Assembly: GCA_020849035.1 (NCBI GenBank) | Contig: JADLHC010000110.1 | Location: 5,269-69,268 of the forward strand | Reading direction: 5' to 3' | Origin: Planctomycetia bacterium | Lineage (GTDB): Bacteria > Planctomycetota > MHYJ01 > WSZJ01 | DNA: 64,000 bases | Shown here: positions 15,483-59,476 of the stretch, one piece after another | How the letters are laid out: each line of letters begins with the position of its first letter | How positions within the stretch are numbered: position 1 is the first letter of the stretch | Program-made: the position numbers and the translations under genes | Notes under the pieces: generated by a model | What the model was told of the DNA's origin: nothing | The model's input: only the letters and a program-made list of their open reading frames with translations | The model's database searches: none

Positions 15483-15565
15483 GTGAACCGGGAGCGGGGC
15501 TTGCGCGATCAACCCCCCTCACGAATGATCCACCGCCTTCCACTCCTCCCCCGTATCACTCCCTG

Positions 15566-28356: not shown

Positions 28357-28417
28357 GGGAGCTGGGTTCGAACCACCCTGCGCCCTGGTGAGGGGGACAC
28401 CGGATTTGAAGTGCGGA
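28357..28417 (-). repeat. Degenerate tRNA-Sec-like 3' fragment (att-like repeat, left island boundary)
   Basis: The minus strand reads CACTTCAAATCCGGTG, then a hairpin-prone variable region, then GGTGGTTCGAACCCAGCTCCC. It shares the 15-mer CACCGGATTTGAAGT (28398-28412) with 46510-46524. No 5' half and no intact T-stem. Confidence 0.45.
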
Positions 28418-32914: not shown

Positions 32915-33757
32915 TTACTCGGCGCGTTGCGTCTTCGTGACGATCTTCAGGCGGGCGGCTTGCTGCTCGATCTCGAGTGCAAGGTCAGTTTCGGCGAGTT
33001 CGCGCGAACCACGCATCGCGAGCGCTTTCATCGCTTCGTGGCAGACTCTCTCCGCGTCCGCGAACGAGAAGCCGCGCATCTTTGCCGCAGCCTTCCTTAG
33101 GTCGAGGCCGGACGTGCTTACCGGGCGAAGGCGAAGCTGCAGCAGCGCAGTCAGGTCCGCCGCCTTTGCCATGGGGAACTCCAGCACATCATCGAAGCGT
33201 CGCCAGAGCGCCTCGTCCAACATCCCTTGGTGATTGGAGGCGGCGACCACGAACTTGTCCCTCGGGTGGGCATCCAGAATTTGAAGGAAGCTGCTGATGA
33301 CGCGCTTTAACTCTCCTACCTCGTGCGGATCGTCGCGACGCTTGCCCAGCGCGTCGAATTCGTCGAAGAACAGGATCGCGTTCTGCTGCGCCGCGAACGT
33401 GAAGACCCGACGAAGGTTGGTCGCGGTCTCCCCGAGATACGAGGACACGATCCCATCGAACCTGGCGTAGAGGAGCTTCATGCCCAACGAACCGGCTAGC
33501 GCCTCGGCGCACACAGTCTTCCCGCACCCGGGCGGTCCGACGAAGATCAGTCGCGAGCGCGGGTGCAGGCCAAGGCCGGCGATCGCGTCTCGGCCGCGGA
33601 ATTCCTGTTCGATCCTCCGGAGGGAGCCACGAATCGCGGGCGTGAAGACAAGTTCGTCGAGGGAGCGGACGGGGTCGCGCATCTCCACCAACAGCGCGTC
33701 CCGATCCGGGTCGCGGGGAAGCGAACCGAAGTGGATGATCTTGCTTGGTTCACCCAT
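32915..33757 (-). CDS. AAA+ ATPase, IetA-like
   Basis: Walker A FVGPPGCGKT, Walker B ILFFDEFD, classical AAA second region of homology. Operonic with the S8 peptidase. Confidence 0.85.
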   Translation of the reverse strand: MGEPSKIIHFGSLPRDPDRDALLVEMRDPVRSLDELVFTPAIRGSLRRIEQEFRGRDAIAGLGLHPRSRLIFVGPPGCGKTVCAEALAGSLGMKLLYARFDGIVSSYLGETATNLRRVFTFAAQQNAILFFDEFDALGKRRDDPHEVGELKRVISSFLQILDAHPRDKFVVAASNHQGMLDEALWRRFDDVLEFPMAKAADLTALLQLRLRPVSTSGLDLRKAAAKMRGFSFADAERVCHEAMKALAMRGSRELAETDLALEIEQQAARLKIVTKTQRAE

Positions 33758-33825: not shown

Positions 33826-34761
33826 TTAACTTCCGGCGATGGAAGAGGATGCGCTCTTCCTGGCCGGATCGAGCACCCCCACCGCCTCCCTTAAGTTCTT
33901 CTCCTGCAGGTGCGCGTACCGCATCGCCATCGCCAGCGTGGTGTGCCCGAGGAGCTGCTTGATCGCGAGGATCGGCACCCCGGCCTGCGCGAGCCGCGAC
34001 GCGAACGTGTGCCGCAGGTCGTGCCACCGGAACCGCTCGACGCCTGCGCGTTTCAGCGCCGTCCGCCACGCCTCCCCGTTGAACCAGTTCATCGCCTTGC
34101 CCGAGATTGGCCCCGTGAGCACGCACGGCTGGTGCAGGCGCCGCGGGATCGCGGTCAGCGTCTCGCGCAGGGTCGCGTTCATCGGAACGACGCGGTCGCG
34201 TTTCGACTTCGTGTGGCGGATGGTGAGCGTGCCGCGCTCAAAGCTGACGTCGGCCCAGGCCAGACGGCGGAGTTCGCCCGCGCGGAGGCCACTGTGGATG
34301 GAGATCACGATCGCGGGGCGGAGCCAGGGGGCGGCGTGAGCAAGGAGGTTCGCTTCTTCCTCGGGCGAGAGGAAGCGGACCACCGTGTTCTCGATGCGGG
34401 GCTTCTTGACCAGCTTCACGGGTTTGCGCTCGACGAGGTCGGCCTTGAGGGCCTCGCGGAAGACGCCGGAGAGCGAGCAGACCTCCTGATACACGCTGGC
34501 GGGTCTCGCGCCGGCGCGCAGGCGGCGGTCGGCGTACTTCTGGACGTCGGCGGCCTTGACCTCGCGCAGCGTCATCGAGCCGAACGCCGGACGGACGTGC
34601 GTGCCCCACAGGCCGACGTAGCGCGCGCTCGTGCCGGGAGCGAGGTTGGTACGGACGTGGTCGAGGTACTCGCGCTCCACGAACTGCCGCACGGTCGCGG
34701 GCGCCTGCGGGTTCACGAGCGCGTCCACCGACGGCAGCTTCAGGAGCCGTGCCTGCAGCAC
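33826..34761 (-). CDS. Tyrosine recombinase/integrase (N-terminus uncertain, possibly truncated)
   Basis: Catalytic box WHDLRHTFASRL...LLGHTTLAMAMRYAHL and an SAM-like N-domain. The first usable start is GTG at 34761. The 519-aa ORF-track extension is antisense to a plus-strand gene remnant. Confidence 0.8.
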   Translation of the reverse strand: MLQARLLKLPSVDALVNPQAPATVRQFVEREYLDHVRTNLAPGTSARYVGLWGTHVRPAFGSMTLREVKAADVQKYADRRLRAGARPASVYQEVCSLSGVFREALKADLVERKPVKLVKKPRIENTVVRFLSPEEEANLLAHAAPWLRPAIVISIHSGLRAGELRRLAWADVSFERGTLTIRHTKSKRDRVVPMNATLRETLTAIPRRLHQPCVLTGPISGKAMNWFNGEAWRTALKRAGVERFRWHDLRHTFASRLAQAGVPILAIKQLLGHTTLAMAMRYAHLQEKNLREAVGVLDPARKSASSSIAGS

Positions 34762-34812
34762 CTGCTCATTGCGCTCGGCCAGCAGCCACCGCGCGACCTC
34801 CTCCTGCGTTAG

Positions 34813-35625
34813 CGCCGCCGCCGTCCGGGCCGCGACCTGACCGACGGAAAGACGATCCGGCAGGCCCTGAACTACTCCAACAACGCGGGGGTGACCTGGT
34901 GCGTCCTCTCGAACGGTGACCACTACCACTTCTACAAGGCGTCCGACCCGGCGAAGGCGGAGGAAAAGATCTTCTGGAAGCTCTCCCTCACGGAAGACTC
35001 GCCGGAGGAAGTCGCCCAGTTCCTGCGGCTCATCTCCCGCGAGTGCGTCGGCGACAATCCGCTGGAGCAGTTCTGGCGGCAGCGGGCGCTCGACCGGGAC
35101 GTGAAGGCGGCCCTCTAGGCGCTGCTGGCGCGGCCGGACGCGGCGATCGTCAAGCTGGTGAGCCAGGACGTCGCCGGGCGAACCCCGAAGGAGATTGCGG
35201 AGTCCATCCGCCGCCTCGTGCCCCACATGACGATCCCGACGCCGGACCTGATGCAGAAGCCGCGCCGGGAGAGGCGTGCGGAGCCGGGCGCGCGGCGTGT
35301 CGTGAAGGGCGAACTCGCGGCAATCCTCGCCGCGGGCATCCTCCAGGCCCCCGTGACCCTCCGCAGTCGGTACAAGGACGGCCACGTCGAAGCGGTCCTT
35401 CAGGCGGACGGCCAGATCCTCTTCGACGGAACGCTCTACGGCTCCTGCTCGGCGGCGGGGGCCATGGGGAAGAAGAAGGTCGACGGCACCGCGAAAGCCA
35501 CGAACGGCTGGGTGTTCTGGACGTACCGGGACGCCAGCGGCCGCGAAGTTCCTCTGGCCGAAGCCCGTGAGGCTCTCGTCGGGAAGCGTGGAGAACGACG
35601 GGAAGGGGCCGACGCTGGCACCTGA
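34813..35625 (+). pseudogene. Remnant of a restriction-type gene (HsdR_N-like PD-(D/E)xK N-domain plus DUF4357/RAMA-like C-domain), 5'-truncated with an in-frame TAG
   Basis: VTWCVLSNGDHYHFYK is HsdR_N-like. LYGSCSAAGAMGKKKVDGTAKATNGWVFW is RAMA/DUF4357-like. ORFs 34891..35118 and 35158..35625 share a frame separated by TAG at 35116-35118. There is no N-terminus upstream of about 34813. Confidence 0.55.
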
Positions 35626-35744: not shown

Positions 35745-36638
35745 TCACATCCCGGCCACCGCCGCCGCCACCTGCTCGTCCGCAACCCGCGCATACACCA
35801 GCGTGCTGGCGATGCTCCGGTGGTCGAGCGCCCGCTGGACGAGCAGGATGTCCTTCGTCTTGCGATAGAGAGCTGTGGCGAAGGTGTGGCGAAGGCCGTG
35901 CGCAGTGACCCGGCGAGCGATCCCGGCCTCCCGAAGACGCCGCCCGATGATGGCCTGGACCTGCCGGCGACAGAGGCGACGGCGCTGCGTGGAGACGAGC
36001 AGGGCCGGAGAAGTCGAGCCCAGCAGCGCCCGCGCCGCGAGCCACGCCGTCAGCCGCTGTCGAACAGCCTCGGAGAGCCCCTTCCGTACTTCGCCGCCAC
36101 CCTTCAGCCGCCGGAGGAGGACAACGCGCTCTGCGAAGTGCACGTCAGCAGCGTCGAGCGCCACAAGGCTGGACAGGCGTATCCCGGTGCCGAGGAGCAG
36201 CGCCAGGATCGCGGCATCGCGTGTCCCACGCCACCCCGAGGTCCGGTCCAGCGCCTGCCGGAGCCTGTCGCGCTCCTCGTCGGTGAGAAGCTCAGGAACG
36301 CGATGGTCGCGGCGGAACTTGAGTACTCGCGCGGGGTTCGTCGAGAGCTCCCCGGCGTCGAGGAGGAACCGGAAGAACGCCCGCAGCGACATCTTGATCT
36401 TGTCCACGCTCGCCTGGCGCTTGCGGCGGCCATCGGCGGTCTCCGTCGCGCACCTCGCCGTTGCGAAGCGGCAGAGGGTGGAGGAGGAAAGGCGTCGAAC
36501 ATCGGTCGGGACGCGCTCCGTTGCCAGCCACGCCCGGAACTCCCCGAGATCTCGCAGGTAGCTGCTGATCGTATGCGGACTGCGCTGGTTCGCGCGGAGC
36601 TGGGTCTCGAAGTCGCGGATCGCTTGGCCGAGCAGCAT
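35745..36638 (-). CDS. Tyrosine recombinase (XerC/D-like integrase)
   Basis: Start MLLGQAIRDF is preceded by GAGGAGG. Motifs GTGIRLSSL, AHGLRHTFATAL, LDHRSIASTLVYARV. Confidence 0.85.
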   Translation of the reverse strand: MLLGQAIRDFETQLRANQRSPHTISSYLRDLGEFRAWLATERVPTDVRRLSSSTLCRFATARCATETADGRRKRQASVDKIKMSLRAFFRFLLDAGELSTNPARVLKFRRDHRVPELLTDEERDRLRQALDRTSGWRGTRDAAILALLLGTGIRLSSLVALDAADVHFAERVVLLRRLKGGGEVRKGLSEAVRQRLTAWLAARALLGSTSPALLVSTQRRRLCRRQVQAIIGRRLREAGIARRVTAHGLRHTFATALYRKTKDILLVQRALDHRSIASTLVYARVADEQVAAAVAGM

Positions 36639-36865
36639 GGTCGCCTCCTCTGATGGCAGGCGGATGTACGCTCGAAAACGGCCAACCGGCAAGGCATCCG
36701 GGTAGTTCTTGCTCGCAGCGCGGGAGGCTGAGAACCTTGGGGATGAACGGGGGTGGCGCAGGGACTCGCAAGGATAATGCTCCCTGCCTGGCCGCCGCGA
36801 GCGGCATGCATGGGAGCTGAGGATCGCGGTATGCATCGAGTCGAACGGTCTGGGGACCTCTGCGC

Positions 36866-39800
36866 ATGAGGCTCGTTCGCAACTCAGGCAATGACCGTGT
36901 CATCGACCTCCTCCGCCCCATCGTCTCCGAAGGGCGGAATCTCGACGTCGCCACTCCCTGCTTCTCGCTCTTCGCCTTTGAGGCATTCATGCGGGAGGCC
37001 GAGGATCTGGAGAAGTGCCGTCTCGTCCTGCCTCCCGCGGATTCCGATCTGGCGGCTCTTGGATCGACGGCCGATCGCACGGCAAGGAATCGGCTGCACA
37101 CCCGCTGGCTCGCGGGGCGGATGCAGGAGTGGGTTCGGGGGAAGGCCGAGGTGCGTCGCGCGCGGGGCGCGATTCCCCAGGGAACGGTCGTTGTCCGGGA
37201 CAAGGGCGCCCAGCCGATCCTCGCGCTCCTGGGGTCGCTCTCGCTGAGCACGGACGGATTGGGCCTGACCCCCGGGAACCCGATGAGCCTCATTCAGGCG
37301 TCAGAGTCGCCGGAAGAAGCTCGGCAGCTCAGCCAGTGGTTCGACCTCCAGTGGTCGGCGCTTGCGGCGGAGGCGAGCGGCAGGGACTCCCTCCTGGAGG
37401 AACTGCGTCGGTACTCAGACTTGCGGGAGCCGTCTCTCATCTATGCGCTGATCCTTTACCATCTGTTCCGAGATCGGGACGAGGCGCTGGACGAGGAAGA
37501 AGTCGTCAAGTCCTCCACGGGGATTCGGAACACGGTCCTCTGGAAGAAGCTGTATCGGTTCCAGCGAGATGGAGTCGTTGGGGCGTTGGAGAAGCTGCAG
37601 CGATTCGGCGGCTGCATCATCGCCGACAGCGTCGGACTCGGAAAGACGTTCGAGGCGCTGGCAATCGTCAAGTACCACGAACTGCGAAACGACCGGGTCT
37701 TGGTCCTCTGCCCCAAGCGCCTCCGGGACAACTGGACGTTGTACAAGGCAAACGACCGCAGAAACATTCTGGCGCCCGACCGGTTCAACTACGACGTGCT
37801 GAACCACACCGACCTCTCGCGCGACGACGGCATGTCCGGCGACATCGATTTGTCGCACGTGAACTGGGGGAACTACGACCTCGTCGTCATCGACGAGTCC
37901 CACAACTTCCGCAACAAGCAGACGCCGCGCCAGAGCGGGGAAACCCGGTACGACCGGCTGATGCGCAAGATCATCCGCGAAGGCGTCAAGACGCGCGTGC
38001 TGATGCTGTCGGCGACGCCGGTGAACAACCGCCTGGCGGACCTGCGCAACCAGATTGCTTTCGCGACGGAGGGCAACGACGTCGCGCTAGCGGACCATGG
38101 GATAGCGAGCATCGACAGCACGACACGGTTAGCGCAGAAGCAGTTCAATCGTTGGCTCGACTTGGGCGAGAGCGAACGCACCCCGGCACAGCTGATCGAG
38201 ATGCTCGGGTTCGACTATTTCCGGCTGCTGGACCTGCTGACGATCGCGCGCTCGCGTAAGCACGTCGAGAAGTACTACGGGACGGTGGAAACAGGGCGGT
38301 TCCCGGATCGCCTGAAGCCAATCAACATCAAGTCCGACGTCGATCGCGCCGGGCAGTTCCCCTCGATTCGAGACATCAACCAGGAGATCCGTCGCCTCAA
38401 ATTGGCGTCGTACGCTCCACTTCGGTATGTCCTCCCTCACAGGCAGGAGGCGTACGACAAGAAGTACAGCACGCAAGTACGGGGCGGCGAGGGCTTCTTC
38501 CGCCAGGCGGACCGCGAGGAGAGCCTGATCCACCTCCTGCGAGTAAACGTGCTGAAGCGTATGGAAAGCGCAGCCCCGTCGTTCGCCCTCACCGTCGGCC
38601 GCCAGCTTCAGGACGTCGAGCAGACTCTGGCGAGGATCGAGAGTCAGGCTACCGACCTCGAAGAGGTCGACATCGAGGATGTGGATCTCGACGATCCGGC
38701 GTTCGAGAGCTTGCTCGTCGGTCGGAAAGTAAAAGTTCTGCTCAAGGACGTCGACCTGGTGCGCTGGAAACAGGACCTCCTCGAAGATCGCAATCGCCTC
38801 AAGAATCTTCACGCGTCCGCTGTCGAAATCAACGCGGCGCGGGATGCAAAGCTCGCGGCGCTCCGCGAGATGATCGAGAGCAAGGTCAGAAACCCGATCA
38901 ACCCGGGTAACCGCAAGATTCTCGTGTTCACGCACTTCGCGGACACCGCGAGGTATTTGTTCGATGAGCTTTCACCGTGGGCAAGACAGCACCTCGGCGT
39001 CGAGTCCGCGCTCGTCACAGGCGCAGGCAGCAACCTGAGCACCATCGCGGACCTGCGAAAGGACCTGGCCTCGATTCTGTCCGCCTTCGCCCCGCGATCC
39101 AAGGAGCGGCCGGCGGAGCTCGTCAGCGAAGGCGAGATCGACCTCCTCAATGCCACCGATTGCATTTCCGAGGGGCAGAATCTCCAGGACTGCGATTGGC
39201 TCATCAACTATGACATTCACTGGAACCCGGTGAGGATCATCCAGCGCTTCGGGCGAATCGACCGCCTCGGTTCGCCCAACTCGCGCATTCAGCTTGTGAA
39301 CTTCTGGCCGAACATCGAGCTGGAGGAGTACATCAAGCTGGAGCAGCGCGTCAGCGGCCGCATGGTGCTCCTCGATGTCTCGGCGACCGGCGAAGAGAAC
39401 CTGATCGAGCAGCAGTCCGGCAACCAGATGAACGACCTCGAGTACCGCCGAAAGCAGCTCCTGAAGTTGCAGGATGCCGTGATCGATCTCGAAGACCTAT
39501 CCAGTGGTGTGTCCATCGCGGACCTGACGCTGACGGACTTGCGGATTGATCTGGCCACCTATCTCAAGGCCCATCCGGGCGTTCTCGAGGACACGCCACT
39601 GGGCATCACCGCCGTGACTACGGCTGCTGAGGCGGACCTGCAACCCGGAGTTGTGTTCTGCCTGCGCGCCGAAACGGACAGGGCGAAGCTCGCCACGGAT
39701 GCAAGCTATCCGCTCGCCCCGCACTATCTGGTACACGTCGGAGCGGACGGCGCTGTCCGGCTGCCGTTCACACAGGCGAAGCAGATTCTGGACGGACTCA

Positions 39801-40558
39801 AGCGGATCTGCTTCGGCCGCGACCTGCCCGATCGAACCGCGTACGCTCGATTCGACGCGCGCACCCGAGGCGGCGAGGACATGAAGGGGGTTCAGAGTCA
39901 ACTTGCCGCAGCTGCCGCGTGCGTGTTGGGCAAAGGCGAGGAGCGGGCGGCATCCAGCCTGTTCAAGCCCGGGGGGACACTGAGTTTCCCGGGCGACTTC
40001 GCCGGCTCGGGCGACTTCGAGGTCGTCTCGTACCTCGTTGTTCTCCCCGAGGAAAGCCACAGTTACCCCCAAGTCGAACGCACAGAGTGCGCCATCGTCA
40101 CGCTGAGATATGAAAAGCCAGGCGATTCGGCCTTCACGTCCGAAGAGAGGCGCCTGTGCGTCCGTGAGGGTCATGCCTCGCTGAAAACTCAGCTAGCGGC
40201 GGCCATAAGGTCCGAGGACCTGGCGACAGAAGTCGTTCACCTCGGCGATGGCGAGGGATCGTTCTGGGCCGAATTTGCCGTCGTTGCCCTCGGGGCCTTG
40301 ACCCTTTCCGGAGGATTCGCCAATGCTCTCCACATCGTGGGTACGGCGCTGGAGAGCTTTGCCCCTCGCTTGACCACGACCGGGAAGTGGCTGCAGGGCT
40401 GCGCCTGGAGATTGACCCCGAAGCCCGGCGGCGAAGCGCCGAAGCCGGGGTGTTTCGGCGTCCGAAAGTGGTTGGACCGCCGGACGACTCGCTGCAAGCT
40501 CTGCGGGTTTCTCGCCGAGTGCGTGCAGATTGTCGAACCGGGCGGAGGGAAAAAGTGA
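36866..40558 (+). CDS. SNF2-family helicase with N-terminal accessory domain and unusual C-terminal extension
   Basis: Motif I ADSVGLGKTFEA, motif II VVIDESHNFRN, motif VI HWNPVRIIQRFGRIDRLGS. About 165 extra C-terminal residues follow the DFEVVSYLVVL region. Confidence 0.85.
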   Translation: MRLVRNSGNDRVIDLLRPIVSEGRNLDVATPCFSLFAFEAFMREAEDLEKCRLVLPPADSDLAALGSTADRTARNRLHTRWLAGRMQEWVRGKAEVRRARGAIPQGTVVVRDKGAQPILALLGSLSLSTDGLGLTPGNPMSLIQASESPEEARQLSQWFDLQWSALAAEASGRDSLLEELRRYSDLREPSLIYALILYHLFRDRDEALDEEEVVKSSTGIRNTVLWKKLYRFQRDGVVGALEKLQRFGGCIIADSVGLGKTFEALAIVKYHELRNDRVLVLCPKRLRDNWTLYKANDRRNILAPDRFNYDVLNHTDLSRDDGMSGDIDLSHVNWGNYDLVVIDESHNFRNKQTPRQSGETRYDRLMRKIIREGVKTRVLMLSATPVNNRLADLRNQIAFATEGNDVALADHGIASIDSTTRLAQKQFNRWLDLGESERTPAQLIEMLGFDYFRLLDLLTIARSRKHVEKYYGTVETGRFPDRLKPINIKSDVDRAGQFPSIRDINQEIRRLKLASYAPLRYVLPHRQEAYDKKYSTQVRGGEGFFRQADREESLIHLLRVNVLKRMESAAPSFALTVGRQLQDVEQTLARIESQATDLEEVDIEDVDLDDPAFESLLVGRKVKVLLKDVDLVRWKQDLLEDRNRLKNLHASAVEINAARDAKLAALREMIESKVRNPINPGNRKILVFTHFADTARYLFDELSPWARQHLGVESALVTGAGSNLSTIADLRKDLASILSAFAPRSKERPAELVSEGEIDLLNATDCISEGQNLQDCDWLINYDIHWNPVRIIQRFGRIDRLGSPNSRIQLVNFWPNIELEEYIKLEQRVSGRMVLLDVSATGEENLIEQQSGNQMNDLEYRRKQLLKLQDAVIDLEDLSSGVSIADLTLTDLRIDLATYLKAHPGVLEDTPLGITAVTTAAEADLQPGVVFCLRAETDRAKLATDASYPLAPHYLVHVGADGAVRLPFTQAKQILDGLKRICFGRDLPDRTAYARFDARTRGGEDMKGVQSQLAAAAACVLGKGEERAASSLFKPGGTLSFPGDFAGSGDFEVVSYLVVLPEESHSYPQVERTECAIVTLRYEKPGDSAFTSEERRLCVREGHASLKTQLAAAIRSEDLATEVVHLGDGEGSFWAEFAVVALGALTLSGGFANALHIVGTALESFAPRLTTTGKWLQGCAWRLTPKPGGEAPKPGCFGVRKWLDRRTTRCKLCGFLAECVQIVEPGGGKK

Positions 40559-40563
40559 TCGCC

Positions 40564-41334
40564 ATGCAAGAAGCCCTCACGGCAAGCGTCCTTCTGCGGG
40601 TTCTTGACCTCCCCTCCGCTTGTCTCGTCAACCAGCGCATCCCCAAGAAGCTCCTCCTCGAGAACGGCGCGCCAACGGCCGCCGACAAACGCCAGATCAA
40701 CGACGGGATCGAAGAGTTGCTCTGGATCGCGGCGCTCAAACCGACGACCGTCGGCGTCGCCGGGTATCGGGACAGCGTCCGCGAATACTTGGAAATCGCC
40801 GTCCTTCGGTTGACGCTTCGGGCTGGGGCGAAGTCGGCGCGACTGATCGAGCTCGTGCACCGTGCCGTGCCCTATCCCGCGCTCATTATTTCGGAGCCGG
40901 GTCCGCAGGCCGGGCTTTCGGCCGCTCACAAGCGCTGGGCACAGAATGAAGCGGACAAGACCGTGCTCGACGGCGACGTGGTCTTCGCGGAGCTGGACTC
41001 GGAGCGCGACGCGAACGTTTGGCCCACCTTTGCCGCCGCGATGGCCCTGGGCCGCCAGCCGCGCGGCGAGCTCTACGCCCTCTATCAAGGCTGGCTGGAT
41101 ACCCTGCTCGCCCTAAAGGCTGCCCGACTGACAGGCGTTCTCGGCCTTGCCGAGACCGCTGACCAGGCCGCCGTACGGCAGGAGGCGCTCCGCGAGTGCG
41201 CGAAACTGGCGGCCGAAATCGTGCGCCTGCGTGCGGCCGCCGCCAAGGAGAGGCAGATGGCCCGGCAGGTGGGTCTGAACCTGGAACTCAAGCGCGCCGA
41301 GGCGGCCCTCGAATCCGCCCGCGCCCGGTTGTGA
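40564..41334 (+). CDS. DUF4391-like protein
   Basis: Pattern QRIPKKLL...IEELLWIAALKPTTVGV...EIAVLRLTL...VHRAVPYPALII...AAHKRW fits my recollection of DUF4391, which sits between the helicase and methylase in such clusters. Alternative GTG start at 40555 overlaps the helicase stop. Confidence 0.6.
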   Translation: MQEALTASVLLRVLDLPSACLVNQRIPKKLLLENGAPTAADKRQINDGIEELLWIAALKPTTVGVAGYRDSVREYLEIAVLRLTLRAGAKSARLIELVHRAVPYPALIISEPGPQAGLSAAHKRWAQNEADKTVLDGDVVFAELDSERDANVWPTFAAAMALGRQPRGELYALYQGWLDTLLALKAARLTGVLGLAETADQAAVRQEALRECAKLAAEIVRLRAAAAKERQMARQVGLNLELKRAEAALESARARL

Positions 41335-41344
41335 AGGAGGAGCG

Positions 41345-43255
41345 ATGAAGAAGCTGACGCCCGCCGACGCCGAGACTAGGTCCACGGACACCGTGGCCGA
41401 GAACATCGCCAAGCTCAAGGCCCTGTTCCCCGAGATCGTCACCGAAGGACCGACGGGAGCGGCGGTGAATGTGGACACGCTCAAGGGCCTCGTGGGGGAC
41501 GGTACGGTCACGGACGCTGAGGAGAAGTACGGCCTCAACTGGCACGGCAAGCGACGCGCGCGGCAGTTGGCGCTCATGCCATCGACCGGCACCCTGCGTC
41601 CCTGCCCGAAGGAAAGCGTGGATTGGGACAAGACGCAGAACCTGATGATCGAGGGGGACAACCTCGAAGTCCTGAAACTTCTTCAGAAGAGCTACGCGGG
41701 CAAGGTGAAGCTCATCTACATCGACCCGCCCTACAACACCGGAGATGACTTTGTCTATTCAGACGATTTCCAGGACAACATTCGGAATTACCTTGAACTG
41801 ACCGGCCAAGTTGCGGGCGGGCAGAAGGTGATCAGCAACACTGAGGCCAGCGGGCGATTTCATACTGACTGGCTGAACATGATGTATCCACGCCTAAAGC
41901 TGGCTCGCAACCTACTGAGGCCTGATGGGCTTATATTCGTAAGCATCGACGACGGAGAAGTTGGGCATCTAAAGCTCGCGATGAGTGACGTGTTCGGCGA
42001 TGACAACTTCGAGGGACACATCCACTGGCGCAGGCGTCACAATCAACCCAACGATCCCACGAAGATGCTGGCGTTGGTTACGGAGCACGTCTTGGTGTAT
42101 GCGAGAGACAAGAGCGCATACAAAGCGGCAGGGGTTGGGAAGCTCGCGCTGACTGGTGAATTCTCGAACCCCGACGGAGATTCGCGGGGTGATTGGGCCT
42201 CCAAACCCTGGAAGGTGGGGGCCGACCAGTCTGGAAGTCGTTACAAGATAACCACGCCAACGGGGAAGGTGTACGACGAAGATTGGATGGGAGAAGAGGC
42301 CACGTTCAAGGCCCTTCTGGCCGACAAGAGAATGATCTTTCCAGACAAAGGAAATGGCGCTCCACGCAAGAAATACTTCAGAAGCGAGCGGGAGCAAGAA
42401 GGACAGTGTGCGACGAACTGGTGGCCGCACGAGATGTTCGGACATAACCAAGGTGCCAATAGCGCCATGGAGGCGCTGCTAGGCGAGAAGAACGTGTTCA
42501 GCAATCCCAAGCCGATTGAGTTGATCGACGGCATTCTTAGCGTTGGCAACGTCAAAAGCAACGATCTCGTCTTGGACTTCTTCGCCGGTTCCGGAACCAC
42601 CGGCCACGCCGTCATGGCTGGAAACGCCGCCGACGGCGGCAAGCGCCGCTACATCCTCGTCCAGCTTCCCGAGCCTCTCGATCCAGAGAGCAAGGACCAG
42701 AAAGTCGCCGCCGACTACTGCGACAAGCTGAAGAAGCCCCGCAACATCGCCGAGCTGACCAAGGAACGCCTGCGCCGCGCGGCCAAGAAGATCAAGGAAG
42801 AGAACCAAGAGTTCACGGGCGACCTCGGGTTCCGCGTCTTTAAGCTCGACTCCACGAACATCCAGGAGTGGGAGCCCAAGCGCGAGGAGCTAGAAGCGTC
42901 GCTCCTGACAGCGGTCGAGCACCTCAAGACCGGCCGATCGGAAGCTGACATCGTGTACGAATTGCTGCTCAAGCTCGGCCTTGATCTTTGTGTCCCCATC
43001 GAGAAGCGCGCCATCGCGGGCAAGGATGTGCACGCGATCGGCCGCGGCGTCTTGATCGTCTGCCTCGCGGAGAAGATCACCCGCGACGATTTCGAGCCGC
43101 TGGGCCAGGGGATCGTCAAGTGGCACAAGACGCTCGCCCCGGCGGGCGACACAACCTGCGTCTTCCGCGACAGCGCCTTTGCCGACGACGTGGCCAAGAC
43201 GAACCTCGCGGCGATCCTCAGCCAAAACGGAATTGCCAACGTGCGGAGCCTGTAG
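41345..43255 (+). CDS. Site-specific DNA methyltransferase (N6A/N4C, type III Mod-like, beta-class motif order)
   Basis: Motif IV IYIDPPYNTG precedes motif I VLDFFAGSGTTGHAV. Confidence 0.9.
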   Translation: MKKLTPADAETRSTDTVAENIAKLKALFPEIVTEGPTGAAVNVDTLKGLVGDGTVTDAEEKYGLNWHGKRRARQLALMPSTGTLRPCPKESVDWDKTQNLMIEGDNLEVLKLLQKSYAGKVKLIYIDPPYNTGDDFVYSDDFQDNIRNYLELTGQVAGGQKVISNTEASGRFHTDWLNMMYPRLKLARNLLRPDGLIFVSIDDGEVGHLKLAMSDVFGDDNFEGHIHWRRRHNQPNDPTKMLALVTEHVLVYARDKSAYKAAGVGKLALTGEFSNPDGDSRGDWASKPWKVGADQSGSRYKITTPTGKVYDEDWMGEEATFKALLADKRMIFPDKGNGAPRKKYFRSEREQEGQCATNWWPHEMFGHNQGANSAMEALLGEKNVFSNPKPIELIDGILSVGNVKSNDLVLDFFAGSGTTGHAVMAGNAADGGKRRYILVQLPEPLDPESKDQKVAADYCDKLKKPRNIAELTKERLRRAAKKIKEENQEFTGDLGFRVFKLDSTNIQEWEPKREELEASLLTAVEHLKTGRSEADIVYELLLKLGLDLCVPIEKRAIAGKDVHAIGRGVLIVCLAEKITRDDFEPLGQGIVKWHKTLAPAGDTTCVFRDSAFADDVAKTNLAAILSQNGIANVRSL

Positions 43256-43258
43256 CCG

Positions 43259-46200
43259 ATGAAACTGCACTTCGAGCCCAACCTCGACTACCAGCTTCAG
43301 GCCATCGAGGCCGTCTGCGACCTCTTCCGGGGGCAGGAGACATGCCGGACGGAGTTCACCGTGTCGAGGCGACCCGTGGAGCCGAAGACCGTCCAGGGTG
43401 AACTCGGACTCGCGGAACCCAAGCACCTCCAGCTAGAACTGGGCTTGAGCGAATCGGCGCTGGGCATCGGCAACCGCCTCACGCTTCTCGACGATGAGCT
43501 GCTCAAGAACCTGAAGGACATCCAGCTCCGAAACGGCCTGACCCCCTCGGCTTCCCTCGCAGCCGGCGACTTCACCGTGGAGATGGAGACCGGCACAGGC
43601 AAGACCTACGTCTACCTGCGCACTATCTTCGAGCTGAACAAACAGTACGGCTTCACCAAGTTCGTCATCGTAGTGCCCTCCGTGGCTATCAAGGAGGGGG
43701 TCTACAAGTCGCTCCAGATCACCGAGGAGCACTTCAAGGGGCTCTACGCAGGTGTGCCCTTCGACTACTTCCTCTACGACTCGGGCAAGCTCGGCCAGGT
43801 GCGCAACTTTGCCACGAGCCCTCAGATCCAGATCATGGTGGTGACGGTCGGGGCCATCAACAAGAAGGACGTGAACAACCTCTACAAGGACAGCGAGAAG
43901 ACCGGTGGCGAGAAGCCCATCGACCTCATCAAGGCGACACGGCCCATCGTCATCGTGGACGAGCCCCAGAGCGTCGACGGAGGGCTGGAGGGACGCGGCA
44001 AAGAAGCGCTCGACGCCATGAACCCACTCTGCACCTTGCGTTACTCGGCGACACACGTGCACAAGCACCACATGATCTACCGCCTCGATGCTGTGGACGC
44101 CTACGACAAGCGGCTGGTCAAGCAGATCGAGGTTGCCTCGGCGACCATCGAGAACGCGCACAACAAGCCCTACGTGAAGCTAATCACAACTCAGAATAAG
44201 CGCGGGATCATCTCCGCGAAGGTTGAGTTGGACGCGCAGACCGTCAGCGGAGTGTCCCGGCAGGAGATCACGGTCCACGACGGGGACAACCTGGAGCAGA
44301 CGACGGGGCGAGCGGTCTACAAAGACTGCCGAGTCGGCGAAATCCGTGTGGCCAAGGGCAGCGGGTCCATGGAGATCCGCTTCCCGGGCGGCGAACGCTT
44401 CCTGAAGCCGGGAGAAGCCTGGGGAGATGTCGATGCCGCCGCGGTGCAGCGGGAGATGATCCGCAGGACCATCCGCGAGCACCTCGACAAGGAGAAACGC
44501 CTGCGCCCGCAGGGGATCAAGGTGCTATCGCTCTTCTTCATCGATGAAGTCGCGAAGTACCGGCAGTACGACGCGGACGGACGGGCGGTCCAAGGCGACT
44601 ACGCGCGCATCTTCGAGGAGGAGTACCGGCGGCTCGCGAACCATCCCGACTACCGCACCCTGTTCAAGGAGGCAGACCTGACGCGTCCCGCCTCCGACGT
44701 CCACGACGGCTACTTCTCGATCGACAGGAAGGGCGGGTGGACGGACACGGCGGAGGGGAACCAGTCCGGTCGGGACAACGCGGAACGCGCCTATAATCTC
44801 ATCATGAAGGACAAGGAGAGGCTGCTCTCCTTCGAGACCCCGCTGAAGTTCATCTTCTCCCACTCGGCCCTGCGCGAAGGCTGGGACAACCCGAACGTCT
44901 TCCAGATCTGCACGCTGCGTGACATCCGGACCGAGCGCGAGCGCCGGCAGACGATCGGACGCGGGTTGCGGCTCGGCGTGGACCAGGACGGGCAGCGTCG
45001 GCGGGGATTCGATGTGAATACGCTGACCGTAGTCGCCACGGAGAGCTACGAGGACTTCGCCAGAAAACTGCAGAAGGAGATCGAGGAGGAAACCGGCATC
45101 CGGTTCGGGGTCGTCGAGGCACACCAGTTCGCGGTCATCCTCACGGTCGATCCTGAGGGAAAGCCGACTCCGCTGGGATTCGAGAAGTCGAAGGAGGTCT
45201 GGCAGCACCTAAAGAACAAGGGCTACATCGACACCCATGGAAAGGTGCAGGACTCGCTCAGGAAAGCACTGAAGGATGGCTCTCTCGATCTGCCTGAGGA
45301 GTTCGCGGATCTCCACCCGGAAGTCGCCCACATCCTCGGGAAACTCGCCGGTCGGCTGGAGATCAAGACCGCCGACGATCGCCGGCAGGTCCGTCCCCGG
45401 CAGGCCGTGCTCCACGGCCCGGAATTCAAGGCCTTGTGGGATCGCATCAAGCACAAGACGACCTATCGCGTGAATTTCGACAACGAGAAGCTCGTCGAGA
45501 GCTGCACGAAAGCGCTGCGTGAAGCACCGGCCATCCCCAAGACACGCCTCCAGTGGAGAAAGGCCGACATCGCCATCGGGAAGGCGGGCATCGAGGCCAC
45601 GGAGCGGGACGGCGCCGCCACGGTCGTTCTGGAGGAAGGCGACATCGAGCTGCCGGACGTTCTCACGGAAATGCAGGATCGAACCCAGCTGACTCGCCGG
45701 ACCATTTTCAGGATCTTGACCGGCAGCAACCGGCTAGCCGACTTCACGCTGAACCCGCAGAAGTTCATCGACACGGCGGCCGAAGCGATCAACCGATGCA
45801 AGCGACTCGCCATCGTGGACGGGATCAAGTACCAGCGCCTGGGCGACGAGGAGTATTACGCCCAGGAGCTGTTCGAGAGAGAGGAACTGAGGGGATATCT
45901 GAGGAACCTCCTCGAATCCAAAAAGTCGATCTACGAGCAGGTCGTCTACGACTCGGACACCGAGGCCGCCTTCGCCGACCAGCTGGAAAAGAACTCAGCG
46001 ATCAGGGTCTACGCGAAACTCCCAGGATGGTTCTCCGTGCCGACGCCCCTCGGAGGCTACAACCCGGACTGGGCCGTGCTCGTCGAGCAGGACGGCCAGG
46101 AACGGCTGTACTTCGTGGTTGAGACCAAAGGCGCGGCTCTCTTCGCGGACAGCCTGCGCCCCACGGAGAAGGCAAAGGTGGACTGCGGTCGGGAGCACTT

Positions 46201-46324
46201 CAAGGCGGTCGGAGGAGGCGTGGGATTCGCGGTCACCGACAGTTTCAGCGGATTCATGGACGAGGTGGCCCGACGACAGGCGGTCCGAGGACCTGAGGGG
46301 AAGGACCTTGAGCACCGACGTTGA
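43259..46324 (+). CDS. Type III restriction Res-like helicase-nuclease
   Basis: N-terminus MKLHFEPNLDYQLQAIEAV. Helicase motif I METGTGKTYVY and motif II VIVDEPQS. C-terminal PD-(D/E)xK-like YNPDWAVLVEQDGQERLYFVVETKG. Confidence 0.85.
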   Translation: MKLHFEPNLDYQLQAIEAVCDLFRGQETCRTEFTVSRRPVEPKTVQGELGLAEPKHLQLELGLSESALGIGNRLTLLDDELLKNLKDIQLRNGLTPSASLAAGDFTVEMETGTGKTYVYLRTIFELNKQYGFTKFVIVVPSVAIKEGVYKSLQITEEHFKGLYAGVPFDYFLYDSGKLGQVRNFATSPQIQIMVVTVGAINKKDVNNLYKDSEKTGGEKPIDLIKATRPIVIVDEPQSVDGGLEGRGKEALDAMNPLCTLRYSATHVHKHHMIYRLDAVDAYDKRLVKQIEVASATIENAHNKPYVKLITTQNKRGIISAKVELDAQTVSGVSRQEITVHDGDNLEQTTGRAVYKDCRVGEIRVAKGSGSMEIRFPGGERFLKPGEAWGDVDAAAVQREMIRRTIREHLDKEKRLRPQGIKVLSLFFIDEVAKYRQYDADGRAVQGDYARIFEEEYRRLANHPDYRTLFKEADLTRPASDVHDGYFSIDRKGGWTDTAEGNQSGRDNAERAYNLIMKDKERLLSFETPLKFIFSHSALREGWDNPNVFQICTLRDIRTERERRQTIGRGLRLGVDQDGQRRRGFDVNTLTVVATESYEDFARKLQKEIEEETGIRFGVVEAHQFAVILTVDPEGKPTPLGFEKSKEVWQHLKNKGYIDTHGKVQDSLRKALKDGSLDLPEEFADLHPEVAHILGKLAGRLEIKTADDRRQVRPRQAVLHGPEFKALWDRIKHKTTYRVNFDNEKLVESCTKALREAPAIPKTRLQWRKADIAIGKAGIEATERDGAATVVLEEGDIELPDVLTEMQDRTQLTRRTIFRILTGSNRLADFTLNPQKFIDTAAEAINRCKRLAIVDGIKYQRLGDEEYYAQELFEREELRGYLRNLLESKKSIYEQVVYDSDTEAAFADQLEKNSAIRVYAKLPGWFSVPTPLGGYNPDWAVLVEQDGQERLYFVVETKGAALFADSLRPTEKAKVDCGREHFKAVGGGVGFAVTDSFSGFMDEVARRQAVRGPEGKDLEHRR

Positions 46325-46463: not shown

Positions 46464-46543
46464 CGGGAGCGCATCGGAATCGAACCGACCAATCCCCTTG
46501 TGGAGGATTCACCGGATTTGAAGTCCGCTTGCTCCGGACTCCC
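46464..46543 (-). tRNA. tRNA-Sec-like element (UCA anticodon loop), apparently lacking a D-arm; probable degenerate selC or att remnant
   Basis: The minus strand reads GGGAGTCC..GCGGA-CTTCAAA-TCCGG, variable hairpin AATCCTCCACAAGGGGATT, T-arm GTCGG-TTCGATT-CCGAT, then GCGCTCCC-G. Only about 20 nt precede the anticodon loop, against about 31 in a normal tRNA. Confidence 0.4.
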
Positions 46544-48309: not shown

Positions 48310-48320
48310 TCTAGCGGAAA

Positions 48321-48410
48321 GGCGGGGGCGAACGGCGGGGGCGTAAGGCGGGGGCGTAGGGCGGGGGCGCGGGGCGCGGGGCGGGGTGGGGGGGCTGGGG
48401 TGGGGGAACC
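48321..48410 (+). repeat. G-rich tandem repeat tract (GGCGGGGGCGTAR x3-4, then further G-runs)
   Basis: ggcgggggcgaac ggcgggggcgtaa ggcgggggcgtag ggcgggggcgc ggggcgcggggcggggtgggggggctggggtggggg, in the divergent intergenic region between the sigma gene and the DUF2089 operon. Confidence 0.65.
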
Positions 48411-49574: not shown

Positions 49575-50606
49575 CTAGCGCCCCTCGATGACCTGGGCCT
49601 CGGCCTCGACCGGCGGGGCCCAGACTCTTGCGCCGTCCGCGCCGATCCACCAGGCCTGCAGGACGACGGGAATCTTCCCGAGCTCGCGGGCGTCCCGGTT
49701 GACGTCGAACGTCGCGGTGGCGCGGCCGCCGGAGTCGGCGGCGCCGAACGTGAGCTCCCTCATCCCGGGGCCGGCGGGCTTCCAGGCGCCGTCGGCCCCC
49801 GCGGCGGGCGGGTCCTTGAGCGCGTCCTTGCGGATCCACGACACGCCCCAGGCCTGCAGCTTCCCCATCGGGTCGAACACGGCGGCCGTGACCTCGAGGC
49901 GCGCCTTCACGCCCAGCGCGACCGTCGGCTTCGCCTCGACCTTCAGCACCCGCCCCTTCACGAACCCCCGCAGCACCTCGGGGGGCTGCAGGAAGACCAT
50001 CTCCGTCCCCTGGATGCGCGACGTGGCGATGCCGACGAGCCGGCCGCGGCCGTCCACCGCGGGGCCGCCGCTGTTCCCCGGGTTGATGTCGCCGGAGAGC
50101 TGCACGACGACGCACTCCCCCGCCTCGTCGCGCCTCACGGCGGACACCGAGACCTTCGTCACCGACGGCGAAGGATTGTCCCCCGCCGTGGCCAGCGACG
50201 GCCCGAACGGGTACCCCGCGACGTAGACCGCCTCCGTCTCCTTCACCTCCGTCTTCGGCGCCAGGTCGATCGGCGCAGGAGTGTCTTCGGCGGTGAAGCG
50301 CAGGACGGCGAGATCCCGCTCCCTGTCCACGGTCACGACCCGCGCCTCGACCTTCTGCTCCCCGTCCCGCCCGCTCTTCAGGATGACCGTCACCGTCTCC
50401 GTGTCGCGCACGACGTGCTCGCAGGTCAGCACCCACCCGGTCTTCCCGTCCTTCCGGAACAGCGACCCGCTTCCCGTCTCCAGCCCCCGGAATCCCACGT
50501 GCTTCACGTAGACCGTCGCGTCCTTGAGCTTCGAGAGCTGCGCCCCGGGGAGCTCCTGGCCGAAGGCGGGGAGGGCGAGGAGGCAGGCGAGAAGCGTGGC
50601 GCGCAT
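49575..50606 (-). CDS. Secreted trypsin-like (S1 family) serine protease
   Basis: Signal peptide. Catalytic triad contexts TCEHVV (His), DLAVLRF (Asp), GNSGGPAV (Ser). Confidence 0.8.
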   Translation of the reverse strand: MRATLLACLLALPAFGQELPGAQLSKLKDATVYVKHVGFRGLETGSGSLFRKDGKTGWVLTCEHVVRDTETVTVILKSGRDGEQKVEARVVTVDRERDLAVLRFTAEDTPAPIDLAPKTEVKETEAVYVAGYPFGPSLATAGDNPSPSVTKVSVSAVRRDEAGECVVVQLSGDINPGNSGGPAVDGRGRLVGIATSRIQGTEMVFLQPPEVLRGFVKGRVLKVEAKPTVALGVKARLEVTAAVFDPMGKLQAWGVSWIRKDALKDPPAAGADGAWKPAGPGMRELTFGAADSGGRATATFDVNRDARELGKIPVVLQAWWIGADGARVWAPPVEAEAQVIEGR

Positions 50607-50694
50607 GGGGGTTGCCAGTCTAACGGAGGCGCGGGGCGAGGGATCGCCTCAAACCTCCGTGCGTCCGCCCGCCCGAAACGCTACGCTTCCCTTC

Positions 50695-55974: not shown

Positions 55975-56448
55975 CTACCCCCAGATCTCCATCTTCATGC
56001 GAACGGTCGTCACGGGACCGCCCTCGGGACACTCGAACAGCGGATCAGGTCCTTCGTCCTCGACCTGGAGTCCGCGACCCTGGAACCACCTCCACGCACC
56101 GGTCGCCTTCACCGTGTCCAATCGAAGCCTGCGACAACCCCCCCGGCGTCCTGCGGAGATCACCGCGAAGACCAGGGCCTCGCCGAGGCCGCGTCTCCTC
56201 CAGGCAGGGTCAACGGCAAGTCCGAAGAGCGTCACTTCAACTCCCTCGATCGCGTACTCGACGGTGCCAACGACGGCTCCCTTCTGTCGGACGACGAGGC
56301 GAAAGGACTCTCCCGGGACCGATATTGCTCGACGCTGCCGGGCCGTTTCTGTGGGGCGGTAGTGAAATCGCAACTCGGCGAACACGCGGTCCCGAAGCGC
56401 CCTGGCCGGCCCTTCGTCCGCCGCTTCGGCTCTGCAGACAGTGATCAC
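55975..56448 (-). CDS. GNAT family N-acetyltransferase
   Basis: Motif A LFGLAVDPAWRRRGLGEALV. GTG start at 56448 forms a GTGA overlap with the stop of the upstream kinase-TPR frame. Confidence 0.75.
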   Translation of the reverse strand: MITVCRAEAADEGPARALRDRVFAELRFHYRPTETARQRRAISVPGESFRLVVRQKGAVVGTVEYAIEGVEVTLFGLAVDPAWRRRGLGEALVFAVISAGRRGGCRRLRLDTVKATGAWRWFQGRGLQVEDEGPDPLFECPEGGPVTTVRMKMEIWG

Positions 56449-59400: not shown

Positions 59401-59476
59401 CGGCGTCGCGCGCCTCCTCGCCCGCCGTCTCGGCGAGGAAGTTGCGCAGGCGGTCGGCGGTAGAGGGGGAGGTCAT
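56445..59476 (-). pseudogene. Ser/Thr kinase - TM - TPR protein with an apparent frameshift near 57041-57056
   Basis: Kinase motifs VALKVLKE, HRDLKPSNVLV, DFGVA, GTPQYMAPE. TM segment LVPVVVSSCLGILLGAYCVAGI. TPR sequence continues in frame A up to ADFTRALDLAP, then in another frame (AAEDLREAVRRHPD...) down to 56445. Confidence 0.7.

Follow-up and report, generated by a model that had tools for sequence, protein, structure and literature searches.

A type III restriction-modification locus preceded by SNF2 ATPase and DUF4391 genes in a Planctomycetia bacterium belongs to a widespread four-gene family

Type III restriction-modification enzymes such as EcoP15I and EcoP1I consist of two components, Mod and Res. 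They hemi-methylate a short asymmetric site, and cleavage needs two inversely oriented unmethylated sites together with ATP; long-range communication proceeds by ATP-triggered one-dimensional diffusion and not by translocation. Here we describe a locus in which homologues of Mod and Res are preceded by two further genes, one for an SNF2-family ATPase and one for a DUF4391 protein. It lies in a stretch of 64,000 nucleotides from a Planctomycetia bacterium (assembly GCA_020849035.1, contig JADLHC010000110.1, positions 5,269 to 69,268), which is referred to as the window; coordinates are those of the window unless another sequence is named.

SNF2-family proteins are part of several other described systems. 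DISARM is defined by the helicase DrmA and by DrmB (DUF1998), mostly accompanied by the PLD protein DrmC; its class 1 combines an SNF2 ATPase, DrmD, with an adenine-type methylase. The ‘HKD+Snf2’ family C3a139 was first recorded beside type III CRISPR cassettes (Shah et al., 2018; PMC6546367), and an HKD-Swi2/Snf2 helicase occurs in BREX-related type 2 systems (PMC12839542). In Hma, the SNF2 helicase is essential, and the operon has been reported as a hotspot for inserted defence genes (PMC11232893). Defence by ietHAS likewise depends on its SNF2 helicase, which behaves in an antitoxin-like way in that toxicity is released when it is mutated (PMC13069673). MADS, also a multi-gene defence based on methylation, is defined by a larger gene set in which MAD6, MAD7 and MAD8 are mandatory (preprint 10.1101/2023.03.30.534895).

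The four genes of the locus are encoded on the plus strand: the SNF2-family ATPase (36866–40558, 1230 residues), the DUF4391 protein (40564–41334, 256 residues), Mod (41345–43255, 636 residues) and Res (43259–46324, 1021 residues). An initial annotation, made by a model from the letters of the sequence and its open reading frames, had described them as tightly packed with gaps of 3–10 nucleotides or overlaps. The packing is borne out by gaps of 5, 10 and 3 nucleotides; the overlaps vanish once the start of the DUF4391 gene is corrected. The GTG at 40387 that had been listed for it is a spurious upstream extension, and the ATG at 40564 is preferred since the orthologues begin there and a GGAGGG sits 12 nucleotides upstream. 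All four reading frames are full length in comparison with their orthologues, so the genes look intact, and the catalytic motifs are kept in all 35 orthologous loci that were aligned, an agreement that chance would not produce. This copy is of the compact form, without genes between the core genes. As judged from its sequence, the locus is a complete restriction-modification defence system, apparently active, from a widespread four-gene family that has no name so far.

Mod matches the Pfam family N6_N4_Mtase (3e-31) and the PADLOC model MTase_III (2e-224, positions 5–620 of 621). Among proteins of known structure it matches 6k0w Mod (2e-69) and EcoP15I Mod (6.5e-58). The DPPY motif (residues 127–130) is followed, beyond a variable region, by the FxGxG motif FFAGSGTT (412–419), which is the order of beta-class enzymes. 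The middle region differs between loci, as expected of a target-recognition domain. Mod is thus classified as an EcoP15I-like adenine/cytosine-N methyltransferase that would recognize the sequence and mark host DNA.

The mod gene is directly followed by res (stop at 43255, ATG at 43259). Res is detected by ResIII (1e-10), RE_endonuc (PF19778, 5e-34) and the PADLOC model REase_III (E = 0, positions 1–981 of 989), and it matches EcoP15I Res (4zcf_C) with 2e-65. The NCBIfam match to PRK15483 (9e-112) stays below the equivalog cut-off (375 versus 564 bits). A superfamily 2 (SF2) ATPase domain (residues 102–265) is combined with a PD-(D/E)xK nuclease domain (residues 888–992, 45920–46234). The motifs TGTGKT, VDEPQ, NPDW and VETK and the nuclease signature PD(937)...E(955)xK(957) are invariant in 35 of 35 loci. 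Res is assigned as an EcoP15I-like ATPase carrying the only intact nuclease of the module, which would cut unmarked DNA.

For the first protein of the module, Pfam reports SNF2-rel_dom (7e-10) and Helicase_C (2e-11) as well as ResIII. The best PADLOC model is C3a139 ‘HKD+Snf2’ (1e-104, aligned over residues 150–1059). Up to about residue 1062 the protein is 66–78% identical to its orthologues. The ATPase core (37562–39271) is made up of an N-lobe (residues 233–386) and a C-lobe (682–802), as delimited by Pfam. It contains GLGKT (257–261, with K260), DESHNFRN (343–350, with DESH at 343–346), LSATPV (381–386) and QRFGRIDR (793–800); all 35 aligned loci share these motifs (I, II, III and VI) without variation. 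RapA and an archaeal Rad54-like SNF2 protein from Sulfolobus are the closest relatives of solved structure. The core is therefore predicted to be an intact double-stranded DNA translocase ATPase.

In front of the core, residues 1 to about 155 (36866–37330) adopt a phospholipase D (PLD) fold according to AlphaFold2 and Foldseek. The model of residues 1–200 has a predicted local distance difference test score (pLDDT) of 90.3. The top match in the PDB is the nuclease domain of SauUSI (7clg, 2.6e-6), followed by the pseudo-PLD domain of FAM83 (4urj, 7e-5), NgoAVII R (3e-4) and BfiI (1e-3). Phosphatidylserine synthase, Tdp1 and PLD are matched as well, and all the best matches are phospholipase-D-fold proteins. 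The counterpart of the catalytic HxK(x)4D motif reads P104-Q105-G-T...D112, with the register set by manual motif alignment and not by residue-level superposition. At this motif the catalytic His and Lys are absent from 68 orthologues, which have PQG(T/A), and from six distant relatives, the Gln being largely conserved. The domain is thus a conserved pseudo-nuclease, a PLD fold predicted from the model to be catalytically dead, so that the only nuclease predicted in the module is the PD-(D/E)xK domain of Res. PLD nucleases work as dimers, and the pseudo-PLD domain of FAM83 is a protein-binding module.

The C-terminal end of the SNF2 reading frame, not mentioned in the initial annotation, is an extension of about 170 residues (1063–1230, 40052–40558) that is rare. 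Of 80 related loci, only one, from Lentisphaerae (L028), has it, at 41% identity, and the other 79 lack it. A single metagenomic homologue was found among 5.8 billion proteins, and a Pfam search with the extension gave no match. The in-frame GC content at third codon positions (GC3) remains high throughout (0.68–0.83), which is the signal of a coding frame.

The second protein is a genuine DUF4391 member: it matches PF14335 over the complete profile (positions 1–232 of 232) with 6.4e-70 and 236 bits (gathering cut-off 29.9). No PADLOC or NCBIfam family matched it. The AlphaFold2 model (pLDDT 89, predicted template modelling (TM) score 0.86) consists of an alpha/beta domain of about 145 residues and three long helices. 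Foldseek searches with this model gave nothing significant, neither in the PDB (best E-value 0.2, TM-score at most 0.2) nor among the viral structures of BFVD (best E-value 0.02, TM-score 0.22), and the only match of the profile hidden Markov model to PDB sequences had an E-value of 1.7. Residues P17, K28, K42, K59, E77, P103/P105, R124 and Y174 are invariant throughout the family, and the family alignment contains no catalytic-looking motif that is conserved across all of it. An interpretation of the alpha/beta domain as a PD-(D/E)xK fold was dropped; the order of strands and helices and the invariant residues do not provide a D...ExK signature. More than 5700 close relatives are found in a large protein collection, and the family comprises 1803 clusters at 50% identity.

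Two unusually long ‘DUF4391’ proteins (P0298 and P0311) consist of DUF4391 joined to genes inserted in the respective loci, a superfamily 1 (SF1) helicase-nuclease and a Schlafen/AlbA_2 piece. P0298 (1419 residues) was considered as an SNF2–DUF4391 fusion that would imply contact between both proteins. This was rejected, its N-terminal part being an embedded SF1 helicase. Both proteins are probably read-through products or assembly chimeras and not real fusions.

With these results, all four gene assignments of the initial annotation hold: an SNF2 ATPase with an N-terminal non-helicase domain, now refined to a dead PLD fold, a DUF4391-like protein of about 256 residues, a beta-class DPPY methyltransferase and a 1021-residue Res-type helicase with a C-terminal PD-(D/E)xK motif. 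The first two partners had also been called uncharacterized, and our literature searches agree. ‘DUF4391’ was named only in two unrelated papers and ‘PF14335’ in none, and we found no publication describing the module, although a prior mention is possible as subscription journals and supplements were mostly outside the coverage of the search. Public annotation of the family is generic (‘helicase-related protein’, ‘DUF4391 domain-containing protein’, ‘site-specific DNA-methyltransferase’, ‘DEAD/DEAH box helicase family protein’).

The distribution of the module was analysed by a pattern scan with one genome per species. At least 232 genomes contain a close relative of the DUF4391 protein, and 80 loci from many phyla were retrieved (L001–L080). 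Presence of the partners was counted by tblastn with the four proteins of the window, requiring at least 3.3 kb of upstream and at least 5.2 kb of downstream flank. The SNF2 orthologue is found upstream of DUF4391 in all 71 loci with sufficient upstream sequence. Of the 57 loci with sufficient downstream sequence, all contain Mod and 56 contain Res. All four genes occur in 53 of the 54 loci in which both flanks suffice, and order and orientation are always SNF2–DUF4391–Mod–Res. This arrangement persists where DUF4391 identity is only 23–31%, including an archaeon. Co-conservation of the four genes in other genomes, which had been set beforehand as a test of the module, is thus strongly supported both by these counts and by distant synteny.

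The same order was found on plasmids of Vibrio, Enterococcus faecium, Methylotuvimicrobium, Acinetobacter, Providencia, Lactococcus, Lactiplantibacillus plantarum and Raoultella, on E. coli chromosomes and in an archaeon, Methanomethylovorans. Of 5426 complete E. coli genomes, 88 (1.6%) carry the module's SNF2 gene. No case of DUF4391 apart from the pseudo-PLD SNF2 protein was encountered in the loci examined. Mod and Res accompany DUF4391 wherever the flank allows, with the exception of L034, which has lost Mod, L052, in which no Res was found, and a Desulforapulum plasmid, which retains SNF2–DUF4391–Mod with Res not listed. These three are decayed or unresolved loci.

In many relatives, the SNF2 gene is preceded by a small DNA-binding gene of the Xis/MerR-type helix-turn-helix (HTH), ribbon-helix-helix or Phd-like kind. 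A compact copy of the module is present in the cultured strain Acidimicrobium ferrooxidans DSM 10331 (L087; CP001631.1, 1445691–1464449). It is flanked on both sides by identical-looking insertion sequence (IS) gene pairs (rve and HTH_38), an arrangement reminiscent of a composite transposon.

Co-evolution was assessed by a Mantel test on pairwise protein distances from 35 complete loci. The correlations were 0.80 for SNF2 and DUF4391, 0.79 for DUF4391 and Res, 0.74 for SNF2 and Res, and 0.46–0.57 for Mod with the other proteins (p = 0.001 in all cases). Exchange of the recognition domain between systems would account for the lower values of Mod.

For the converse question, plasmids were searched with the Res protein and the contexts of the matches were inspected. 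Members of this Res clade were found in four arrangements: as a Mod–Res pair, as a three-gene form without DUF4391, as the four-gene module, and joined to a DrmA–DrmB block. The plain pair is found in Aeromonas (Res 56% identical) and in Thiodictyon, there with RhuM inserted; Res identity in the lone pairs is 51–56%. The three-gene form, with genes for an HTH protein, SNF2, Mod and Res, is present in Cupriavidus (L099, 2838–10991) and Rhizobium (L101, 1648–10976). Its SNF2 protein has 949 residues, carries the Walker A motif near residue 67, contains no PLD-like domain, is DrmD-like, and shares 27–29% identity in the core. Judged by these features, it is of a different family from the pseudo-PLD SNF2 protein. 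Because the clade has gained SNF2 partners more than once, partnership with SNF2 proteins appears as a recurring functional theme of this type of Mod–Res. Dependence is one-way: DUF4391 comes with SNF2 and, apart from the three loci named above, with Mod–Res, while Mod–Res can stand alone.

The DrmA–DrmB form was encountered on about 15 Bacillus cereus plasmids as a co-directional block DrmA–DrmB(DUF1998)–SNF2–DUF4391–Mod–Res. On plasmid NZ_AP022875.1 (L093/L095), for example, the six-gene block spans 274723–288456 and has no DrmC or DrmD of its own. A tblastn search with the B. cereus DrmA and DrmB proteins found neither of them in the window or in any other locus examined.

In a comparison with characterized systems, the locus shares with type III enzymes the homologous Mod and Res, the mod-then-res order, the beta-class organization of Mod and the combination of SF2 ATPase and PD-(D/E)xK domain in Res. 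It differs by the pseudo-PLD SNF2 and DUF4391 genes ahead of mod, which are found in no characterized type III enzyme. The restriction of type III systems to two components does not apply here, two more genes being co-conserved in 53 of 54 loci and co-evolving with Mod and Res. The statement in the initial annotation that SNF2 and DUF4391 are outside the canonical type III mechanism agrees with this.

DISARM class 1 resembles the module in having an operon with an SNF2 ATPase and an adenine-type methylase, and DrmD is the nearest named family for the helicase lobes. However, the NCBIfam model DISARM_DrmD reaches only 146.6 bits (cut-off 610) and aligns to residues 547–817 alone. Among the four genes and the scanned neighbours, PADLOC detected no DrmB or DrmC, and the only DrmA match was a weak one (6e-21) on the helicase lobe of SNF2. 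The window thus differs from DISARM by the lack of DrmA, DrmB (DUF1998) and DrmC, the effector is a type III Res, and DUF4391 is absent from described DISARM systems. Since DrmA and DrmB adjoin the module only on the B. cereus plasmids, identity with DISARM was rejected. With respect to BREX, there was no PADLOC match to the phosphatase PglZ, the ATPase BrxC or the methylase PglX among the four genes and the neighbours between 24 and 48 kb, where only weak BrxHI/II matches to helicase lobes were obtained. The absence of DISARM and BREX markers, as originally noted, is therefore confirmed for the four genes and the tested neighbours, but in view of the B. cereus plasmids the link to DISARM is closer than had been assumed.

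SauUSI and the ‘HKD+Snf2’ proteins have the same succession of an N-terminal PLD-fold domain and a helicase/translocase, SauUSI providing the best fold match. In contrast to them, every examined SNF2 protein of the module has lost the His and Lys of the HKD motif, and the PADLOC model aligns only from residue 150. The partners differ, too: DUF4391 and type III Mod–Res here, none or DUF499 with a PglX-like methylase in the HKD+Snf2 types.

Hma is similar in being a methylase-linked SNF2 defence operon with inserted defence genes. It differs in that HmaA has an active C-terminal PD-(D/E)xK nickase and an ATPase gene takes the place of Res and DUF4391. The HmaA model covers only residues 627–803 of our SNF2 protein, the helicase C-lobe (1.6e-21); the protein has no nuclease domain and the module no HmaC-type ATPase gene.

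The ietHAS (Liu-DS4) system unites an SNF2 ATPase with IetAS, and four relatives of the module have IetAS embedded after the SNF2 gene, while IetAS is also present in the island that contains the module in the window. According to its description, however, the Walker A lysine of the ietHAS helicase is residue 65, which leaves no PLD-like N-terminal domain, and no restriction-modification genes are described for the system.

A link to MADS, methylation-based as well, was suggested by the annotation of the small HTH gene ahead of the module in E. coli NCTC11023 (L090, 8252–8416) as MAD1-like. MADS is a different system with eight genes that needs MAD6–8 and has a type I-like methylase with a bipartite site, and the copy in the window lacks an upstream HTH gene. 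Neither the four proteins nor their neighbours matched a MADS family in NCBIfam. The assignment of the module to MADS was thus rejected.

Many relatives carry additional genes within the module. The junctions between core genes were inspected in L001–L080, L094, L096, L098 and L101, and insertions were counted in 59 related loci. Of these, 44 have one or more additional genes at the junctions, always in the same orientation; the remaining 15 are compact. The SNF2/DUF4391 junction is occupied in 15 loci, the DUF4391/Mod junction in 16 and the Mod/Res junction in 33. Representatives of the insertions are known defence or toxin genes, encoding Schlafen/AlbA_2 proteins, GmrSD and DUF262 proteins, RhuM, small PD-(D/E)xK proteins, DarT with the macro-domain protein DarG, IetA with IetS, AAA_21 ATPases with RloB, Fic, YhcG, AAA_14-DUF4143 proteins and large SF1 helicase-nucleases. 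IetA–IetS directly follows SNF2, ahead of DUF4391, in L037 (from Coralloluteibacterium), L048, L067 and L075. A precedent for such cargo is PrrC, which is embedded in a type I hsd locus (PMC12707154). Several inserted reading frames have no Pfam match (e.g. 7582–8601 in L014 and 10737–11516 in L057) and could be unrecognized defence genes.

We favour the interpretation that the locus encodes a type III restriction-modification system with a dedicated accessory pair of motor and adaptor, SNF2 and DUF4391, that works through Mod–Res, and assign it a probability of about 0.55. The pair would dock on Mod–Res and would have no function of its own. DUF4391 is likely to be the bridge between SNF2 and Res because it co-evolves equally with both. 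The dead PLD domain would probably serve in dimerization or in binding of DNA or a partner. The SNF2 motor would spend ATP to travel along invading DNA or to remodel it, so that site-bound Mod–Res complexes could meet or could reach DNA covered by proteins. Restriction might thereby become stronger or broader than in classic type III enzymes, which depend on diffusion only. In favour of this interpretation are the intact enzymes, the synteny that extends to distant relatives, the co-evolution, the one-way dependence, the dead PLD fold, the independent associations of the Res clade with SNF2 proteins and, by analogy, the essential SNF2 helicases of Hma (PMC11232893) and ietHAS (PMC13069673). 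A more far-reaching version is offered tentatively: pseudo-PLD SNF2 and DUF4391 might define a new restriction-modification subtype, a ‘motor-assisted type III’, in which a double-stranded DNA translocase is bolted onto a diffusion-driven enzyme via an adaptor whose fold has no relative among the solved structures searched. The cleavage rules would then differ: two head-to-head sites might, for instance, no longer be strictly required, or DNA coated with protein might be cut. The enzyme might also be coupled to embedded toxins.

Several points weigh against the favoured interpretation. Two-gene Mod–Res versions exist in the same clade, so SNF2–DUF4391 is not indispensable for Mod–Res activity as such, and classic type III enzymes are free of partners. 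The Mantel correlations could partly stem from co-transfer of linked genes. As insertions occur in 44 of 59 loci, the operon is modular and not tightly coupled in translation. The fold of DUF4391 offers no functional clue, with neither a structural relative in the PDB or BFVD nor a sequence relative in the PDB. The copy in the window has no small upstream HTH gene, and its expression is thus predicted only. Physical contact among the four proteins and their function are, for every member of the family, what we infer from sequence.

The frequent insertions raise the question whether SNF2–DUF4391 is instead a sensor or regulatory hub, which monitors Mod–Res or invading DNA (e.g. phage anti-restriction) and controls or restrains embedded toxic back-up effectors. 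Abortive-infection or toxin-type genes (DarT/DarG, IetA/IetS, AAA_21 with RloB, Fic, GmrSD, Schlafen-like) are present in 44 of 59 loci, IetAS stands right after SNF2 in four of them and nearby in the window, the SNF2 helicase of ietHAS is essential and frees toxicity upon mutation (PMC13069673), and a similar arrangement is known from PrrC within a type I locus (PMC12707154). However, 15 of the 59 loci and the copy in the window are compact and have no such effector, so the pair must have some role independent of cargo. Judged by the position of its Walker A lysine (residue 65), the ietHAS helicase is similar to the short DrmD-like SNF2 proteins and not to the pseudo-PLD ones, and the cargo is so heterogeneous that an insertion hotspot fits better than specific coupling. 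We consider such a hub rather improbable. Still less credence is given to a role in host protection, by which SNF2–DUF4391 would strip Mod–Res from unmodified host sites during replication, repair or island entry and so ease establishment. The module is very mobile, being found on islands and plasmids and in IS-flanked copies across bacterial phyla and archaea, which makes control of establishment matter; a small HTH regulator is often found ahead of the operon, and RapA and Mot1 are SNF2 motors that displace proteins. Yet self-cutting is already prevented by the site-orientation rule of type III enzymes, and Mod–Res pairs of this clade are maintained in the absence of SNF2 and DUF4391.

It is equally doubtful that the module is a reduced or alternative DISARM system, with SNF2 corresponding to DrmD and Mod to DrmMI and with Res replacing DrmA, DrmB and DrmC as effector. 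DrmD is indeed the best named NCBIfam and PADLOC match of the SNF2 protein after ‘HKD+Snf2’, and DrmA–DrmB is joined to the module on the approximately 15 B. cereus plasmids. This is outweighed by the score of 147 bits against a cut-off of 610, confined to the helicase C-lobe, by the lack of DrmA and DrmB in the window and all other loci examined, and by the clear homology of Mod and Res to EcoP15I. Finally, SNF2–DUF4391 might be an independent system or might simply happen to adjoin an ordinary type III system within a defence island. Defence genes do cluster in islands, IetAS and integrases lie alongside in the window, and the related ‘HKD+Snf2’ family has been listed beside type III CRISPR cassettes (PMC6546367). 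This explanation is close to refuted by the fixed order and orientation in 53 of 54 loci across domains of life and by the co-evolution of the four proteins. Moreover, the SNF2–DUF4391 pair has no intact effector domain, DUF4391 is never apart from this SNF2 protein, and Mod or Res is missing only in the three decayed or unresolved loci.

In the window, the module is part of a probable genomic island of about 18 kb. The GC content, otherwise about 0.70–0.75, falls to about 0.62 between roughly 28 and 47 kb. At the right edge there is a tRNA-Sec-like gene on the minus strand (46465–46543), recognized by Rfam (RF01852) with 47.6 bits against a gathering score of 47. Its anticodon loop reads CUUCAAA, the D-arm is missing, and ARAGORN called no tRNA, this gene included. 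An imperfect 48-nucleotide direct repeat of its 3' part (family D5) is located at 28368–28415 (no strand assigned; 73% identity with 46480–46527), where it coincides with the fall in GC content; Rfam does not recognize this left copy. The tRNA-Sec-like gene, the repeat and the GC profile together suggest an island at a selC-like site, with the tRNA-Sec-like gene as the probable integration site and 28368–28415 as the probable left boundary. The evidence is moderate in view of the limited identity of the repeat (73%) and the unusual tRNA.

Two tandem tyrosine recombinase/integrase genes on the minus strand (33826–35385 and 35745–36836) lie immediately upstream of the SNF2 gene and diverge from it. 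Both contain the Pfam domain Phage_integrase (1e-28 and 3.5e-35 for the pair) and have XerC/XerD-like NCBIfam matches below the cut-off. Only 29 nucleotides separate the annotated start of the second integrase gene (36836) from that of the SNF2 gene, which leaves almost no room for a promoter. The true start of this integrase may be further in, as its Pfam domains begin at residue 75. A scan for sigma-70 promoters was uninformative for this GC-rich genome. Beyond the integrase genes, which thus lie between it and the module, the island contains a second defence system on the minus strand, IetS (30547–32904, PADLOC 7e-75) and IetA (32915–33757, PADLOC 5e-78), a subtilase and an AAA ATPase; the NCBIfam matches to IteS and IteA are below the cut-off.

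The left end of the island contains a reading frame of 631 residues (28558–30453, plus strand) whose GC3 is coding-like and for which Pfam, PADLOC and NCBIfam gave no match. Just outside the island, at 48319–48370, the 13-nucleotide unit AAGGCGGGGGCGT is repeated in tandem about four times, adjoining a gene for a sigma-70/extracytoplasmic function (ECF)-like factor and a DUF2089 reading frame. Three genes for Ser/Thr protein kinases (15314–17464, 50524–52542 and 56237–59476) are encoded within the 64 kb of approximately 72% GC, a combination that recalls myxobacteria.

The copy in the window is an ordinary member of an uncharacterized yet widespread family, which current annotation shrinks to ‘type III restriction-modification’ and two generic names. 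The family is frequent: it is represented in at least 232 species-representative genomes for the close subfamily, in 1803 DUF4391 clusters, in 1.6% of complete E. coli genomes and on plasmids of Enterococcus, Lactococcus, Vibrio and B. cereus. It also constitutes a previously unlisted landing pad for defence genes, which is useful for finding new ones. Methylation-based defence with several helicases is no longer surprising. What sets this family apart is the combination of a translocase and a protein without structural relatives with the best-understood diffusion-driven restriction enzyme. The system is directly testable in E. coli strains from culture collections, and the family makes it possible to ask what a motor adds to a restriction enzyme based on diffusion and what dead-nuclease domains do in defence proteins.

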